A stretch of DNA of 63,752 bases, the filler included, from Dehalococcoidia bacterium (GTDB taxonomy: Bacteria > Chloroflexota > Dehalococcoidia > DSTF01 > JACRBR01), in NCBI GenBank assembly GCA_041494685.1. It is 4 parts of 4 records of this genome, joined end to end, with 100 filler letters (N's around TTAATTAATTAA, not from the genome) between each part and the next. Parts side by side here need not be neighbours in the genome. Positions count along the whole stretch, not along the records: positions 40,401 to 59,620 come from JBGQBE010000057.1; 3 more parts are not named here. One strand, written 5' to 3'. Shown here in pieces: positions 20,162 through 56,674 of this stretch. Under the pieces are notes generated by a model, which had not been told where the DNA came from, ran no database searches, and saw only the letters and a program-made list of their open reading frames with translations. Position 1 is the first letter of the stretch. The number at the start of each line of letters is the position of its first letter. The translations under genes were made by a program, and so were the position numbers.

Positions 20162-20246
20162 GGGTACGCCCTCCGTTCGGGATCCGGTGCGTGAGATGTG
20201 TGAGCGGGGGCCGCCGTAGCGGCCCCCGCCGGGAGTCCTTAGCGAG

Positions 20247-32410: not shown

Positions 32411-32485
32411 GGACCTAGAACCAAGAACGTAGAACCTGGGCGGCGTTCGGGGACATTAGGTTCTTGGTTCTAAGTTCCAGGTTCT
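32411..32485. repeat. Inverted pair of heptamer tandem arrays (AGAACCT-like / AGGTTCT-like)
   Basis: Left ggacct agaacca agaacgt agaacct; right aggttct tggttct aagttcc aggttct; 13-bp perfect pairing 32416-32428 with 32460-32472. Confidence 0.8.
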
Positions 32486-48809: not shown

Positions 48810-50293
<1,484 letters not shown>

Positions 50294-50297
<4 letters not shown>

Positions 50298-51310
50298 GAC
50301 GGCATGCCCCTCTCGATGTAGTCGAGCCGCAGCGCCTTCCGCACCGCCTCCATCGTCGCCTGGGCGGCGGCGCGGCCGGCGGCGCTGCCACGCTCCAGCG
50401 CTTCGCTCACGAGCTGGGGGTGCGCCTCGAAGTGGGTGCGCCGCTCGCGGATGGGATCGAGCAGGTCGTTGATGGCGACGATCAGCTTCTTCTTCACCTC
50501 GACGTCGCCGACCGCGCCGCGCACGTAGCGCTCCTTCAGGTCGTCGACCTCGGCGGTGTCCGGGTTGAAGGCGTCGTGGTACATGAAGACGGGGTTCCCC
50601 TCGATGTGGCCGGGATCGGTGGCGCGCAGGCGCGTCGGGTCGGTGTACATGCTCATCACCTTCTGGCGCACGGTCTCGGCGTCGTCCTTCAGGTAGATGG
50701 CGTTGTCCAGCGACTTGCTCATCTTCGCCTGCCCGTCGGTGCCGACCAGCCGCGGCACGCGGCCGACGAGCGGCTCCGGCTCCGGGAACACCTCGGCGAA
50801 GTCGCGGTTGAAGCGCCGGGCGATCTCGCGCGACAGCTCGATGTGCGGGAGTTGATCGTCGCCGACGGGCACGAGGTGGGCGCGGGGCATGAGGATGTTC
50901 GCCACCTGCATGAGCGGGTAGATGAAGAAGCCGACGGGCACGCTCTTCTTGCCGGACTCCAGGTCCTGCATCTCGGCCTTGAGCGTGGGGTTGCGCTGGA
51001 GCATGCCAAGCGGCATGAACCAGGACAGCAGGACCGCCAGCTCGGCGTGCTCCGGCACCATGCTCTCAATGACGTAGTGGCTGCCCTCGGGATCGAGGCC
51101 GACGGCGAGCCAGTCGAGCGCGACCTGCCACACGGCGTCGCGGACGCGGTCCACGTCGTCGGCGTAGTCGGAGACCTGGTAGTCGGCGATGAGGAAGAAG
51201 CACTCATACTCCTTCTGCAGCCGCACCCAGTTCTCCAGCGCGCCGGCGTAGTGGCCCAGGTGCAGCGGGCCGGTGGGCCGGATGCCGGTGAGAATGCGCT
51301 TGCGGGTCAT
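50294..51310 (-). CDS. trpS: Tryptophan--tRNA ligase
   Basis: Start MTRKRILTGIRPTG; HLGH (HIGH); VPVGDDQLPH; KMSKS. Confidence 0.96.
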
Positions 51311-51327
51311 TGCGCCGCTCCGCGGCG

Positions 51328-51456
51328 CAACAGCAGACAACAGACAACAGACAACAGATCAGACGGGGGCGTATACGCCTCCGGCAGACAACAGACGACA
51401 GACAACAGATCGGGCGGGGACGTGTGCGCCGCCGACAGACAGCAGACAACAGGCGA
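51328..51456. repeat. Heptamer array (CAGACAA-like) organised in 51-bp higher-order units
   Basis: Units 51334-51384 and 51385-51435 plus a partial third unit from 51436. Confidence 0.88.
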
Positions 51457-51472
51457 CCAATTGGCCGATCGG

Positions 51473-51925
51473 TTAGTCAGCGACATACTCTCCCTTTTCC
51501 TCTCTAAACGCCGTCCCGCGGCCAGTCTGCTTGTCGAGCAGGATCATCTGCGCCGAGATCATTCGCAATATCTCCTCGCAGGCCTCGACCAGGGCGGCCT
51601 CGCGCTCCGCCGGGATCTTTCCGGAACGATGGAGCACGTCCAGCCAACCGATCGTCTCGTTGGCGGAGCCGCGTGCTATCGACAGGTGGTTGCGGTACGC
51701 GCCGGCCGCGAACCGGCCATGCCCCTCCGCGATGTTCGCACCGATGCTGCTGGATGACTTCACAAGCTGCTGCACCAACACATTCGTCGCGCGGTCGTTC
51801 GGCAGCGTGCCTACAATGTCCAGCACTGCCACCGTCAGATCCTGCGCCCTCTGCCACATCGCCAGATTCCTGAACGAGTACCTGTTCTTCGCCGGAGCCC
51901 CATCGCCCGTCGCGTCGGCGCACAT
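51473..51925 (-). CDS. Four-helix-bundle protein (23S rRNA intervening-sequence protein family)
   Basis: SFRNLAMWQRA, QLVKSSSSIGANIAEG, HLSIARGSANET; GGGAG RBS; lower GC. Confidence 0.92.
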   Translation of the reverse strand: MCADATGDGAPAKNRYSFRNLAMWQRAQDLTVAVLDIVGTLPNDRATNVLVQQLVKSSSSIGANIAEGHGRFAAGAYRNHLSIARGSANETIGWLDVLHRSGKIPAEREAALVEACEEILRMISAQMILLDKQTGRGTAFREEKGEYVAD

Positions 51926-51960
51926 ATCAGTCTCCCGCGTTTCTTCCCGCGCTTCCGCGC

Positions 51961-52020
51961 TCTGCTGTCTGTTGTCCGTTGTCTGCTGTCTGCTGTTGTC
52001 TGCTGTTTGCTGTTTGCTGT
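51961..52020. repeat. Heptamer array (TTGTCTG/CTGTTTG-like), inverted relative to 51328-51456
   Basis: About 8 degenerate units ending at the trpB2 stop codon. Confidence 0.88.
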
Positions 52021-53390
52021 CATGGTGCAGCCACCACCGGCACCTGCTTCATCGCTTCGGCGACCTGCGCCGCCGGGTAGGCGAAATCCTGGAGGTTGCC
52101 GGCGAGATAGTTGTCGTAGGCGGTCATGTCGAAGTAGCCATGGCCGCTGAGGTTGAACAGGATCACCTTCGCCTCGCCGGACTGCTTGCAGGCGAGCGCT
52201 TCGTCGATGGCGGCGCGGATGGCGTGCGCGCTCTCGGGCGCGGGCACGATCGCCTCGGTGCGGGCGAACTGGATCGCCGCCTCGAAGACGGTGTTCTGAT
52301 GGTAGGCGCGCGCCTCCATGTGGCCCTGGTTGTAGAGCTCGCAGATCAGGTTCGCCATGCCGTGGTAGCGCAGGCCGCCGGCGTGGATGCCCTCCGGGAT
52401 GAAGGTGTGGCCGAGGGTGTACATCTTGACGAGCGGCGTCATGCCGGCGGTGTCGCCGAAGTCGTAACGGTACTCGCCCCTGGTGAGCGACGGGCACGCC
52501 TCCGGCTCGGCGGCGATGAAGCGGGTCTTCTTACCGCCGACGAGCTTCTCGCGCATGAACGGGAAGGCCATGCCCGCGAAGTTCGAGCCGCCGCCGGCGC
52601 AGCCGATGACGACGTCCGGGTACTCGCCGGCCATCTCCATCTGCTTCAGGGCTTCCTGCCCGATGACGGTCTGGTGCATCAGCACGTGGTTGAGCACGCT
52701 GCCCAGCGAGTACTTCGTGTCGTCGCGCTTCACGGCGTCCTCAACGGCCTCGCTGATGGCGATGCCGAGGCTGCCGGGGTTGTCCGGCGTCGCGGCCAGG
52801 ATGGCGCGGCCGGCCTCGGTGTCGGGGCTGGGGCTGGCGACGACTTCGGCGCCGTAGAGCTGCATCATGCTGCGGCGGTAGGGCTTCTGATGGTACGAGA
52901 CTTTGACCATGTAGATCTTCAGCTCCATGCCGAAGAAGTTGCAGGCCATCGCCAGCGCCGTGCCCCACTGGCCGGCGCCGGTCTCGGTGGTGATGCGCTT
53001 CACGCCCTCCTGCTTGTTGTAGTACGCCTGGGCGACGGCGGTGTTCGGCTTGTGCGAGCCGACCGGCGACGCGCCCTCGTACTTGAAGTAGATGTGGGCG
53101 GGCGTGTCGAGCGCCCGTTCGAGCCGGCGGGCGCGGATCAGCGGCGTCGGCCTCCAGAGCTTGTAGACCTCGCGCACCTCGTCCGGGATCTCGATGTAGC
53201 GCTCGGTGGAGACCTCCTGCTTGATCAGCTCCATCGGGAAGAGCGGCGCCAGATCGGCGGGACCGATGGGCTGGTGCGTGCCGGGATGCAACGGCGGCGG
53301 CGGCGCCTTGGGCAGGTCCGCCGCGATGTTGTACCAGTGCGTCGGCATGTCGGTCTCGGACAGGTTGAACTTGGTGATGTCGTTGTTCAC
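52020..53390 (-). CDS. trpB2: TrpB-like PLP-dependent enzyme (TrpB2)
   Basis: [54 protein letters not shown]. Confidence 0.93.
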
Positions 53391-53512
53391 TGGGAATCCT
53401 CCTTGGCTATCGGCGTTCGGCCGTCAACTGCGTCGTCGTGCCGCCTGCGATGACGCAGGCCCGAAGGGCGGACAGGTCTGAAGAGCTGTCCCTACGGATC
53501 TGGGTCGCGGGC

Positions 53513-53810
53513 AAAACAAAAAGCTCACGCCCACTGAGGGGCGAGAGCTTGTCTCGCGGTACCACCCTGCATCGCCCGGCGCCGCACGCCGGACATCTCT
53601 GCTCCGCACGGGCCACGCGGGCCGATGCGGCGGGCCGTGGTAACGGTGCCCATCCCGTCGGAGACTACTGCCCCGCCTGAGCGAGGGTTCGGTCCGAGGC
53701 TCCCAGGTCCATTCGGTCTGTCGCGCGGCCGCCGGCTTTCACCTGACCCGGCTCTCTTATCGGCCCGCCTGCCGGACGTACTAGCCCTGATCGTCGCCGA
53801 TCCGTATCGA
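53513..53810 (-). promoter_or_regulatory. T-box riboswitch with Trp (UGG) specifier and intrinsic terminator
   Basis: Minus strand: AGUA, AGAGAG..GGUGAAAG stem I motifs; GAA-UGG-A specifier (53709-53711); T-box AGGGUGGUACCGCG (53555-53568); terminator AAGCUCUCGCCC..GGGCGUGAGCUU plus U tract (53513-53550). Confidence 0.92.
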
Positions 53811-53819
53811 AGTGGTGGC

Positions 53820-53849
53820 AGCGTAGCCCCGCGCGGGCGAGGGTGTCAA
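53820..53849 (-). promoter_or_regulatory. Promoter of the T-box leader
   Basis: TTGACA-18 nt-TACGCT on the minus strand. Confidence 0.6.
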
Positions 53850-53874
53850 GCGGCGACGACAACGCGCGCTGCCG

Positions 53875-56571
53875 CTACTCCTCCTCCCGCCGGAACCGCA
53901 GCGTCACGATCTCGTTCGGACGGGCGGCGATGGCGGCGCCCTGGCGGACGCGCGGCACGTCCGCCTCGTCGTCTTCGTTCAGGTTCGTCAGCGAGACGCT
54001 GCCGCGCGCGGGCGGCACGTCGACGAAGGTATCGGCCTCGCCGTCCATGATGTTGTAGACGCGGACGATGACGCCATCCCCGTCCTCGGCGCGCTTGATG
54101 CCGGAGACCGGGAAGGCGGGCGACGGCACCTTGACGAGCTGGTCCTTCGCGGGCATGTGGCCGAGGCCACGGCGGTTGTAGCGCGCGCGCATCGGGCGCA
54201 GCGCCTGCACGGCGAGCACGTGCGCGGCCGCGTCGGCCCAGGTACCCGCGTGCGGGATGATGCTGTACTCCAACACGTTGCGGCCGTGGAGCTGCGCGCC
54301 GGGCGTGCGCAGCTCGGGCCCGGCGCCGCCGCGGCGCGTGTAGATGTCGGAGCGGGAGAGCCAGCCGACGCAGCGCAGCAGCGTCAGGGCGATGGTGGCA
54401 CCGTCGGGCGTGTCCAGCACCTCGTACTCCGGCAGGCCGCGGTTCGCGATGGTGAGGCCGAACTCGCCGTCATCGACGCTGACGAAGGCCTTCTGCGGGT
54501 AGGTGCCGAGCGGCTGCTCCATCCACGTCGCGGGGTCCCACCGCGGCAGGGCGATCGGCCGCTGCACGACGCCGAAGTGCTGGTCGGCCTTCGAGACGCC
54601 CGTCGTGATACCGGACGGAAAGTGCGCGCGGAGGCGGTGGTCCTCGGCGGCGTTGAAGACGACGGTCTGCACGTCGGCGCGCGGTACGCCGTCGGTCAGC
54701 GTGACCGTGGTGACGATGCGCTCGTCGCAGGTGGCGGCGCTGCGCGACGCGCGGTCGGCTGCGAGGCCGGCGGGCAGCGCGTACGTCAGCTCGACGGTCA
54801 GCGCGTGCACGCCGGCGCCGTGCTCGACGCGGATCTTCGGCTGCGCGGCCGGGCGATCGACAAGCGTGTCGGTCTCCGGGGCGCAGAAGTTGTACTCGTC
54901 GCCGCGGTCGCCGCCATCGACGAAGCGGTTGAGGCCGGCGTGGGCGCGGCCCGTGCGCTTGTCGAGCACCTTCAGCGTGCCGTCCGCGGGGTCCGCCTCG
55001 ACGAAGAGGAACTCGTTCTCGATCATGCGGCCGTTGTTGGTCAGCGGGGCGAGCGGCTCGCCCGACTGGAGGCGGTAGATCTTGTAGCCGTAGCCCGGCA
55101 CGTCCGCCGCGACGAAGCCGATCTCCGCGCGGGCGCGGTCGAAGCCGGAGGGCGCGCCTTCGGGCAGCGTGATGTACGACGTCTGGCCGACCTGGCGCAC
55201 GTCGACGCGCTCGCCGTCCGGGCCGACGGCGGCGACGAAGGGCGACTGGTCGTTCCACGGCACGGCGGCGGTGACGTAGCCGGTCGCGGGCTGGGGCGTC
55301 GGGTTGAAGACCGAGATCGTGCCCATCGGGTCGTCCGGCCCGAGCGCGCCGATGATACGCAGCGACTGGCGCACCATCTCCTCGCCGATCTGGCGCACCC
55401 ACTCGTAGCGCTGGCGCATCTCTTCGTGGACGCCATCGACGGAGCAGCCGCAGATCGAGTCGTGCGGCTGGTTCTCCAGCAGGTGGCGCCAGGCACGGTC
55501 GATCAGCGCGGAGATCGAGGCCTCGGACGTGGGGAAGGGCATGTGGGCGGTGGTGGGCGGCAGCGGCTCGTGCCACTCCGGGCCCACCTGCTTCTTCACG
55601 ATGTCGGCCCACGTGCTGAAGGGTTCGGCCCAGTGCGCGAGCAGGTCCTCGCACTCCTGGTTCGACTGCTTGATCCACATGCGGGCGGAGAGCACGCCGG
55701 GCAGCAGGTGGGCGCGCTGGCCGCTGCGGAACTCGCCGTCGTGGCGCGGCCAGTCGCGGGCACGGTCGCCCATGTAGTCGCGGATGGCGTCGAAGACCTG
55801 GGGCAGCGAGCTGTGCTGAAGCACGGCGCCCTCGATCTCCATGTTGGCGGTGCGGATGAGCTCGGGCAGCTCCGGCTGGGGCGGCAGGTGGTCGCTGCCG
55901 TTCATCACGAGCACGTAGGGCGTGGTGGCGAGCGGCTCCAGGTCGTCGCGGACGGACTGGATGCGGGCCATCAGCGCCTTCGGGTTACGCGGCAGGGTCG
56001 CGCCGCTGCCGTAGCCCTTGGGCTTGTGGATCGTCAGCACCTCGCTGCCGTCAGGCGAGCGCCAGAAGAACTCGGTGGTCTTGAGCGAGTCGTCGGCGCC
56101 GCGCCACATGGTGGCGTTCTCGATGCCGAAGCCGCGGAGGATGGCGGGCATGTGGGCGATCTGGCCGAAGGGGTCGGGGATGTAACCGACTTTCATCACG
56201 GGGCCGAACAGCTTCGCGACGCGGTGGCCGCGCAAGAAGTTGCGGACGAGCGCCTCGCCGCCGGGCAGCGCCTCGTCCGGGATGATGTACCAGGGGCCGA
56301 TCAGCAGCTTGCCCTGCTGGACGGCGCGCTCGACGTCCTCGAAGCGGTCGGGGCGCACTTCCAGGTAGTCCTCGATCGGGATCGTGTGGCCGTCGAGCAT
56401 GAAGTGCTTGTACTCGGGGTCGCTGTCGAAGATATCGAGCAGCATGTCCATGAGGCCGACGAGTCGGACGCGGAACGACTGGTAGGCGAGGTACCACTCG
56501 CGGTCCCAGTGCGTGTGCGAGATCACCATCAGCTGGCGCTTGTCTTTGGGTTTCGAAGAGAAGAGCGGCAT
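53875..56571 (-). CDS. Glycoside hydrolase family 38 alpha-mannosidase
   Basis: SHTHWDREWY, LDG, IGPWY, PDPFG, NQPHDSICGCSVD, TLLRCVG. Confidence 0.93.
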   Translation of the reverse strand: MPLFSSKPKDKRQLMVISHTHWDREWYLAYQSFRVRLVGLMDMLLDIFDSDPEYKHFMLDGHTIPIEDYLEVRPDRFEDVERAVQQGKLLIGPWYIIPDEALPGGEALVRNFLRGHRVAKLFGPVMKVGYIPDPFGQIAHMPAILRGFGIENATMWRGADDSLKTTEFFWRSPDGSEVLTIHKPKGYGSGATLPRNPKALMARIQSVRDDLEPLATTPYVLVMNGSDHLPPQPELPELIRTANMEIEGAVLQHSSLPQVFDAIRDYMGDRARDWPRHDGEFRSGQRAHLLPGVLSARMWIKQSNQECEDLLAHWAEPFSTWADIVKKQVGPEWHEPLPPTTAHMPFPTSEASISALIDRAWRHLLENQPHDSICGCSVDGVHEEMRQRYEWVRQIGEEMVRQSLRIIGALGPDDPMGTISVFNPTPQPATGYVTAAVPWNDQSPFVAAVGPDGERVDVRQVGQTSYITLPEGAPSGFDRARAEIGFVAADVPGYGYKIYRLQSGEPLAPLTNNGRMIENEFLFVEADPADGTLKVLDKRTGRAHAGLNRFVDGGDRGDEYNFCAPETDTLVDRPAAQPKIRVEHGAGVHALTVELTYALPAGLAADRASRSAATCDERIVTTVTLTDGVPRADVQTVVFNAAEDHRLRAHFPSGITTGVSKADQHFGVVQRPIALPRWDPATWMEQPLGTYPQKAFVSVDDGEFGLTIANRGLPEYEVLDTPDGATIALTLLRCVGWLSRSDIYTRRGGAGPELRTPGAQLHGRNVLEYSIIPHAGTWADAAAHVLAVQALRPMRARYNRRGLGHMPAKDQLVKVPSPAFPVSGIKRAEDGDGVIVRVYNIMDGEADTFVDVPPARGSVSLTNLNEDDEADVPRVRQGAAIAARPNEIVTLRFRREEE

Positions 56572-56581
56572 GAGGGACCTC

Positions 56582-56609
56582 AGAACCTGGAACTTAGAAC
56601 CTAGAACCT
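56582..56609. repeat. Heptamer block, 27/28 identical to the reverse complement of 32458-32485
   Basis: agaacct ggaactt agaacct agaacct. Confidence 0.85.
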
Positions 56610-56674
56610 AGGGGCTGAACCGCGGGTCATGGGCGATGGTAGCGGTTGCGGGGGCAACGTGCGACCGGCGGCGG

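Follow-up and report, generated by a model that had tools for sequence, protein, structure and literature searches.

The window analysed here, a 63,752-nt stretch of DNA from a Dehalococcoidia bacterium (GCA_041494685.1; genome G000), comprises four contigs (C55, C56, C57 and C76) with 264 N, and features are not to be read across its joins near 20246, ~40400 and ~59720. On contig C57 (contig position = window position - 40400), the junction between trpB2 and trpS is occupied by a cassette, a small four-helix-bundle gene of family PF05635 flanked by tandem heptamer arrays that are complementary to one another (Table 1). The gene has a lower G+C content (0.631) than either trpB2 (0.671) or trpS (0.682).

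Period-7 arrays were called with Tandem Repeats Finder (TRF), and inverted pairs come from a repeat search of the window. The 5' array begins with the A of the trpB2 stop codon (TGA), and 19 nt separate the end of the last 3' array (51330) from the trpS ATG. TRF reports 8.3 copies of the unit in the 5' arm (51961-52021, 78% matches), 4.1 copies at 51330-51358 (95% matches), 3.6 copies at 51385-51409 and a 51-nt super-period across 51333-51452. The blocks of the 3' arm are separated by G+C-rich spacers, and the spacer of blocks 2 and 3 carries the palindrome GGCGTATACGCC.

The longest ungapped inverted repeat is 31 nt long (51328-51358 and 51968-51998, 94% complementary) with its halves 609 nt apart, and the repeat search returned 22 further inverted pairs in other registers. 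In the register 51330-51353 and 51966-51989, 23 of 24 positions are complementary, and the exception (A at 51342, C at 51977) is a G:U pair on the minus (mRNA) strand. A 736-nt RNA fold pairs the 5' array with the 3' arrays at -352.6 kcal/mol, compared with -312.3 +/- 5.9 kcal/mol for 20 shuffled sequences (z -6.9, 0/20 as stable). By repeat search and fold alike, the terminal inverted repeats give a stem enclosing the open reading frame (ORF), the design of ORF-bearing intervening sequences (IVSs). These results bear out what the initial annotation had described: the lower-G+C gene between trpB2 and trpS, the arrays running from the trpB2 stop codon to just before trpS, a 24-bp helix with a single G:U pair, a loop of about 610 nt and an open 62-aa frame coupled through an ATGA overlap and passing through the upstream array. 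That observation is confirmed and far from chance, and the interpretation placed on it is partly supported.

In the assembled DNA contigs of four sequencing runs (X1 to X4), one X1 contig, which may stem from the source sample, covers the whole cassette and window-identical contigs cover it partly in X2, X3 and X4; DNA assemblies tend to break within the 5' array. No excised form from the same strain was seen in the DNA contigs of these runs. A nearly empty site is seen in a 374-nt X1 contig of a relative (14 differences in 126 nt), where 176 nt separate trpS from trpB2, compared with 859 nt in the window.

Table 1. Features of the trpB2-trpS cassette and its surroundings, in window positions (aa, amino acids; PLP, pyridoxal phosphate).
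Feature	Position	Strand	Evidence and remarks
T-box leader 5' of trpB2	53534..53803	-	RF00230, 47.3 bits, E 2e-9, full model 1-219, conserved AGGGUGGUACCGCG box
Terminator-like hairpin after T-box leader	53543-53528	-	terminator-like site search
trpB2, TrpB-like PLP enzyme	52020..53390	-	PF00291; NF009057, 771 bits; TGA stop (52020-52022) within ATGA overlap
62-aa frame	51835..52023	-	reading frame open; from ATG of ATGA overlap, through 5' arm, overlaps gene start out of frame
5' arm, (ACAGCAR/ACAACAG)n in mRNA sense	51961..52021	-	TRF, repeat search; 8.3 units, best-paired stretch 71% purine
G+C-rich spacer	51926..51960	-	period-12 row at 51933-51955; GGGAG 7 nt before gene's ATG (likely ribosome-binding site)
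Four-helix-bundle gene, 150 aa	51473..51925	-	PF05635 / TIGR02436
Small hairpin directly 3' of gene's TAA stop	51454..51471	-	terminator-like site search; weak terminator-like match
3' arm, three (CUGUUGU/CUGUCGU)n blocks in 51-nt super-repeat	51330..51452	-	TRF, repeat search, fold; blocks 51436-51452, 51385-51409, 51330-51358
7-bp hairpin GCGCCGC-GGA-GCGGCGC	51312..51328	-	sequence, also in RNA fold; loop and 3' side hold GGAG 7 nt before trpS ATG
trpS, tryptophanyl-tRNA synthetase	50294..51310	-	PF00579; ATG 51310-51308
trpE	48810-50297	-	downstream of trpS

Inverted period-7 arms across the gene family

The genome carries three PF05635 genes, and all three are bracketed by inverted period-7 arrays of different units: ACAGCAG at the window locus, GGTAGTT on contig C14 and TGGTGAT on contig C2 (G000:C2:87118-87435, a copy with an in-frame TAG). 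We scored arm pairing as an upstream/downstream inverted score with thresholds of 12, 15 and 20. The window locus scores 25. Among 300 random genes of the same genome, 12 reach a score of 12, 2 reach 15 and none reaches 20; the sole heptamer case among them, gcvH (C8:66988-67377), is explained by a neighbouring local hairpin. The gcvH junctions (G000:C8:66780-67500, L062) contain several same-strand arrays (GCAAACA, AACAGAC) and one local hairpin, with no four-helix-bundle gene.

The family was found in 26 of 41 genomes of the order. Scores of at least 12 were obtained for 26/36 loci (one of which, L004, is a G+C-rich match and not an array), at least 15 for 16/36 and at least 20 for 10/36. 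Three loci (L002, L017 and L040) were mis-windowed in this set, L040 scoring 28 with a corrected window, and the counts become 24/34 (at least 12) and 9/34 (at least 20) without the two loci of the unpublished genome G021. A broad set of 79 loci was taken from the best 80 of 582 confirmed relatives and leans to relatives of this clade, because the search patterns came from 6 of its sequences; the nearest named relatives among the best 80 are Dehalococcoidia/Chloroflexota assemblies with 43-48% identity. The broad set covers at least 10 phyla, with members from Chloroflexota, Alpha- and Betaproteobacteria, Planctomycetota, Acidobacteriota, Gemmatimonadota, Bacteroidota, Cyanobacteria, Verrucomicrobiota, Acidimicrobiia and candidate-phyla bacteria. 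Here 58/79 loci score at least 12, 50/79 at least 15 and 28/79 at least 20, compared with 5/79, 2/79 and 0/79 for non-cognate arm pairs, and the arms have a period of 7 or, less often, 8.

Packaging between inverted arrays, for which the initial annotation had proposed a family-wide test, is the norm of this gene family across many phyla. None of the 20 alphaproteobacterial loci of the family lies within an rRNA gene. We found no description of PF05635 genes bracketed by inverted heptamer arrays outside rRNA in the literature searched, in which most subscription journals were not covered.

Two further loci, L147 (G005:C4:35500-43500) and L148 (G017:C18:238500-246500), contain runs of paralogous genes of ~390-410 aa with cassettes in several successive junctions. 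These cassettes each have a different heptamer unit, and several of the host genes, the one checked being an acyl-CoA dehydrogenase gene, are split or broken. The contig C2 copy with the in-frame TAG sits in a similar neighbourhood.

Heptamer arrays also occur without the gene. TRF returns 351 period-7 rows for the genome, and 188 of these have a low-G+C unit, fall into several unit families and are mostly intergenic (135/188 by a crude gene model). Twenty-one arrays have a reverse-complement partner 8-62 nt to the right and are plain short-loop hairpins. As the cassette does, the gene-less hairpins sit only a few nucleotides (within 5-30 nt) from the neighbouring stop and the next start codon. 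In the window, arrays with an ACCTAGA unit are found at 32413-32437 (partner at about 32460-32472), a short-loop hairpin between divergent genes, and at 56577-56611.

History of the trpB2-trpS copy

trpB2 and trpS adjoin across the order. In the 27 genomes examined, the junction is filled by the gene in seven (G000, G004, G016, G017, G022, G028 and G029) and empty in 13, often with the trpB2 stop codon overlapping the trpS start codon (ATGA); four have other contents (G008, G023, G025 and G034) and the remaining three are not assigned. The clean empty sites that the initial annotation had asked for in relatives thus exist, and one of them (G020) belongs to the same genus (g5) as a filled site (G004). 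The G025 junction contains arm-like arrays around ~250 nt with no recognisable gene, and those of G008 and G034 contain unrelated spacers. In G023 (L034 2465-3220) the junction holds an IS200-like Y1_Tnp gene (PF01797, E 1.3e-7) flanked by palindromes resembling repetitive extragenic palindromic (REP) sequences (GTAGCGCGGGCTTTTCAGCCCGCGCG), together with a short heptamer remnant. Hairpin-flanked genes of two different kinds are drawn to this junction.

In a tree of 33 proteins, from which L002 and L017 (broken) and L028 (partial) were left out, the filled-site proteins form a clade with 100/100 support on a long branch, which also takes in proteins from G027 (gene after trpS), G039 (gene next to trpS) and G036. 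Within this clade, the four members of the window's own taxonomic family group together (82/98). Identity to the window's protein drops from 67% to 45%, and identity of TrpB2 from 88% to 72%. The ratio of nonsynonymous to synonymous substitution rates (dN/dS) is 0.25-0.26, with dS near saturation. Flanks are syntenic for most sister pairs, the exceptions being L013/L014 and L023/L027, which share a unit (L023/L027 within one genus), and L015/L030, L032/L030, L008/L013 and L005/L010; cassette movement therefore happens and is rare. Judged from these comparisons, the trpB2-site copy is an old, vertically inherited and functional gene that has repeatedly been lost. The suggestion of a mobile or intervening element in the initial annotation accordingly stands as to the IVS design and the family-wide packaging, and does not stand as to a recent insertion at this site, where the cassette is an old resident under purifying selection.

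We also inspected the 11 junctions of G000 that are orthologous to relatives' cassettes. Seven are clean, one retains a single arm, one (C47) carries a gene-less hairpin of another unit and two carry short arrays. The one-armed remnant, (ACGGGAA)n in the gene sense, lies at G000:C60:13050-13101, where G003 and G031 hold a full cassette with that unit. Cassettes thus both decay to scars and are lost cleanly.

Arm co-variation and polarity

The units of the orthologous cassettes differ: four genomes use AACAGAC, two use GCAGAGN, one uses AGAACCY, and the 8-mers AAACAGGC and ACGGGCAT are found in others. For each of the five genomes whose unit is not shared (G022, G027, G028, G029 and G039), an ungapped arm matrix gives the strongest pairing of the left arm with the right arm of the same cassette (13-20, compared with 6-13 for foreign arms). 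Something maintains arm complementarity while the sequences of the arms drift.

The arms also have a fixed polarity relative to the gene. In the gene sense, the upstream arm is more than 60% purine in 46/58 broad loci and less than 40% purine in 0/58; in the order set the corresponding counts are 13/26 and 3/26. At the trpB2 site, upstream arms are 67-84% purine (6/7 occupied sites, that of G017 being mis-windowed). All 12 gene-less hairpins of this genome that are located between co-directional genes have a 5' arm with a purine fraction above one half (0.52-0.78), and in 11/12 it is at least 0.6. Purine content is the informative measure; array orientation by A+C content shows no bias relative to genes (60 vs 54). 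Such a polarity suggests that the role is strand-specific, either in the transcript or on one strand of the DNA.

The single G:U pair at the window locus, as pointed out in the initial annotation, does not belong to a wider trend. Arm mismatches show no excess of sense-strand G:U over A.C pairs in either set (29 vs 27 in 29 order loci; 60 vs 73 in 63 broad loci), in a coarse count from ungapped alignments with ambiguous registers.

The four-helix-bundle protein

The gene product scores above the curated cut-offs of PF05635 (90.1 bits, cut-off 33.8; E 1.3e-25) and TIGR02436 (88.5 bits, cut-off 24). Its structure model has four long helices and a predicted local distance difference test (pLDDT) value of 87.6. 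The kinship to rRNA-IVS proteins given in the initial annotation holds at the level of both sequence (2RLD, E 8.5e-9; 2GSC, E 4.4e-6) and fold (target TM-score 0.91-0.93 and root-mean-square deviation 1.1-1.5 A against 2GSC; 0.84-0.90 against 2RLD). Avd, the other relative it had named, is a more distant match, both alone (4DWL) and within reverse transcriptase (RT)-Avd-RNA complexes (8UB7 and others), with target TM-scores of 0.82-0.84 and 12-13% identity.

The entries of both solved IVS-type relatives, 2GSC and 2RLD, contain five chains, and a homopentamer is stated for relatives in the family (PMC4990558). In an alignment of 16 diverse members, the invariant columns are Q53, S60, N64, E67, G68, S87 and E90, which fall in the motifs S-x-x-A-N-I-A-E-G and G-S-x-x-E. 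The seven invariant polar or acidic positions in ANIAEG and GSxxE hint at a defined functional site and not merely a structural bundle. Our working guess is that the protein acts on the periodic arms.

The cassette contains no ORFs other than the PF05635 gene and the 62-aa frame, the latter without a Pfam match. As the initial annotation had it, no mobility gene is at hand: no transposase was found among 13 scanned proteins of the cassette's contig and no reverse transcriptase (RVT_1) in the genome (97.6% complete). A PADLOC search gave marginal matches only (E 0.007).

Cassette ends and operon context

The cassette fills the stop/start junction completely. At the left end, the ATG overlapping the trpB2 stop codon is kept; in empty sites that ATG is the trpS start codon. 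At the right end, a new GGAG within the 7-bp hairpin precedes the trpS ATG. The insertion breaks the ancestral translational coupling of trpB2 and trpS. In G017 and G029 the retained ATG opens the four-helix-bundle ORF itself, and the array would by this ORF reading be translated in frame; for annotation this means that in 2/7 occupied sites the arm itself is the protein N-terminus. In G004 a short frame from the retained ATG stops 2 nt before the gene's ATG.

In 6/7 occupied trpB2 sites, both cassette ends carry the stop/start motif, over 4-8 nt: ATGAC (G000), ATGACG (G004), CGCGTGAC (G016), TGACG (G022), CATGA (G029) and ATAG. This repeat may have arisen by target duplication, or may simply reflect the need of trpS for a start codon. 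No duplication was seen in 9 other comparisons of filled with empty sites, in which a 7-123-nt spacer is replaced.

All genes of the region lie on the minus strand, and trpE is followed by a NUDIX/methyltransferase gene, trpD, trpC and a second PLP enzyme gene. The T-box leader upstream of trpB2 reads GAA-UGG-A at the expected specifier place, which suggests a Trp specifier. Such a leader would make trpB2, the cassette and trpS, and probably also trpE, trpD and trpC, subject to control by tRNA-Trp. As no promoter-like site was found within 50900-53900, the cassette is most simply taken as part of the tryptophan operon transcript. The genome has one RNase III gene. No rRNA match was found within 50000-54200, the locus being the trpB2-trpS junction and not the rRNA gene in which ORF-bearing IVSs reside.

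Discussion

The anatomy of the cassette, the generality of its packaging, the age of this copy and the purifying selection on it, the co-variation of its arms among orthologues and their fixed polarity are observations. To explain them we favour, with moderate confidence, a resident copy of a widespread gene-plus-hairpin cassette of the IVS type that would be co-transcribed with the Trp T-box operon and processed at its stem. The cassette would have no promoter of its own and would be transcribed together with the operon, and its arms would pair in the transcript as a long interrupted stem. Ribosomes leaving trpB2 may reinitiate at the ATG that is retained in the ATGA overlap and translate across the 5' arm; we propose that this would open the stem and thereby couple the gene's expression to that of the host operon. 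Two steps are least secure. RNase III might cut the stem, as it does in the homologous 23S rRNA IVS, freeing the ORF-bearing loop and parting the trpB2 and trpS messages; and the protein, whose solved relatives have five chains per entry, might act on the periodic arms.

The closest precedent is the IVS in helix 45 of Coxiella burnetii 23S rRNA, in which an S23p/PF05635 ORF lies in the loop of a 28-bp stem and is preceded by 3-4 GACAGAT heptamers whose number varies between strains (PMC4990558). RNase III cuts this stem at the first repeat in vitro, in line with the account of stem-bounded, RNase III-cut IVSs of this family in the initial annotation, and ORF-bearing 23S IVSs are also found in Leptospira and Brucella (PMC4990558). 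The cassette shares with it the ORF family, an ORF in the loop of a terminal inverted-repeat stem (24-31 bp ungapped here), tandem heptamers of a similar unit in the 5' arm (GACAACA/GACAGCA here) and the lack of a mobility gene. It differs in its host transcript, a protein-coding operon, and in its arms, which are longer arrays with the 3' arm tripled. Purifying selection and a good ribosome-binding site mark the gene described here; the Coxiella ORF, in contrast, is described as decaying and probably not translated (PMC4990558). RNase III cleavage, demonstrated there, is a putative step here. As the cassette does not lie in rRNA, we do not count it as a member of the rRNA IVSs despite the same design. 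PF05635 is a very large family, called uncharacterised both in the Coxiella paper (PMC4990558) and in a 2024 preprint on candidate-phyla rRNA insertions.

Several points weigh against an IVS-type, RNA-processed cassette. The T-box match lies below the Rfam gathering score of 93. The Coxiella precedent is silent on the role of the protein, since its ORF is probably untranslated (PMC4990558). The protein is near neutral here (isoelectric point 6.3, at the low end of the range of 6.3-10.2 over 16 relatives), and heptamer arrays are found in relatives without a PF05635 match (G011, G014, G015 and G020; 51-96% completeness). Finally, as there is no G:U excess, arm complementarity may be maintained in the DNA itself. 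An RNA role of the arms is favoured by their polarity and by the rRNA precedent, a DNA role by the lack of a G:U signal and by the scars.

A possible but doubtful alternative is a selfish element at the DNA level, with arms that would serve as DNA hairpins or terminal inverted repeats for a recombinase encoded elsewhere, in the manner of REPIN/RAYT, IS200/IS605 ends or integron attC sites, a gene that would be cargo or accessory, and gene-less hairpins that would be non-autonomous or decayed copies. Besides the mismatch pattern, this is consistent with sites filled or empty among relatives, even within genus g5, and with close protein pairs of shared unit at non-syntenic loci (L013/L014 and L023/L027); most sister pairs are syntenic, however, and movement is rare. 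The stop/start motif repeated at both cassette ends also fits, but the ATGA-type repeat may be the trpS start codon and the 9 other comparisons show no target duplication. The one-armed remnant on C60 where two relatives carry the cassette, the 21 short-loop hairpins elsewhere in the genome, and the Y1_Tnp gene with its REP-like palindromes at the same junction in G023 argue for DNA-level activity, whereas no recombinase lies in or beside any cassette examined and no reverse transcriptase was found in the genome. Long-term purifying selection on the gene argues against such an element, as does the fixed polarity of the arms with respect to the gene, for which symmetric terminal repeats have no need.

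REPIN/RAYT systems consist of REP hairpins and a Y1 transposase-like gene flanked by them. The cassette resembles them in that a single gene is flanked by inverted repeats that recur without the gene as intergenic hairpins, and in its long vertical residence, and in G023 the junction itself holds a Y1_Tnp/REP element. Its gene, in contrast, encodes a small helical bundle without a known nuclease or recombinase motif, and its arms are tandem arrays with a unit that differs per copy.

It is unlikely, in our judgement, that the cassette is a host regulatory module, in which heptamer hairpins would be ordinary intercistronic elements of processing, stability or translation and the protein a trans-acting, TRAP-like ring factor that binds arrays genome-wide and has its gene inside its own target for feedback. 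The predominantly intergenic low-G+C arrays (135/188), the hairpins that fill operon junctions 5-30 nt from stop and start codons with the polarity of the cassette, and the purifying selection on the gene are consistent with such a module, and the five chains per entry of the relatives and the place of Avd within an RNA-protein complex would suit a ring factor, but a near-neutral protein would not. It also fits that paralogues differ in unit, both within one genome and within the tandem clusters of G005 and G017. Against such a module, no G000 cassette uses AGAACCT, the unit family that ranks second in abundance there (44 pattern matches), and arrays occur in genomes without a PF05635 match.

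Two further explanations are highly improbable. Arrays are common and ordinary genes such as gcvH can have them on both sides, but an unrelated small gene lying between two arrays by coincidence is rejected by the random-gene controls (10/36 vs 0/300 at a score of 20), with 3/3 copies in the genome bracketed and gcvH explained by its adjoining hairpin. An Avd accessory protein of a diversity-generating retroelement (DGR) would have the four-helix-bundle fold of 4DWL and of the RT-Avd-RNA complexes (8UB7, 8UBB and 8UBE), but identity is only 12-13%, the nearest structures are IVS-type, the neighbours are trp genes, and a DGR role is unlikely as no RVT_1 match was found in the genome; template and variable repeats were not searched for, and we reject this identity barring a reverse transcriptase in the unassembled part of the genome.

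The role of the protein allows a bolder conjecture, to which we give little credence: a ring of subunits might read the 7-8-nt units of a single-stranded arm, making the protein a maintenance or propagation factor of periodic hairpins, and the gene and the gene-less hairpins a REPIN/RAYT-like partnership without a classical transposase. Short tandemly repeated heptamers of cyanobacteria are known as STRR. These and the TAACTGA repeats of Beggiatoaceae (PMC4679880) resemble the arms as many-copy intergenic tandem heptamers near start codons. Unlike the cassette, they are described as direct repeats, with one inverted set among ~170 (PMC4679880), and the terms '23S', 'S23', 'helix bundle' and 'intervening' are all absent from that paper. 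If the protein were such a factor, this would explain what the rRNA intervening-sequence proteins do and where the unexplained heptamer repeats of bacteria, such as cyanobacterial STRR and similar repeats, come from.

The locus offers a natural series within one order, with the same junction filled, empty, scarred or replaced by a REP/Y1 element, and the polarity shared by cassettes and gene-less hairpins, together with the lack of a G:U signal, brings into sharper focus whether the arms act at the RNA or the DNA level. The rRNA IVS appears to be one special case of a general cassette that resides in the stop/start junctions of ordinary operons. If so, its periodic arms, RNase III and the coupling to the upstream gene would provide testable handles on the biology of this family.

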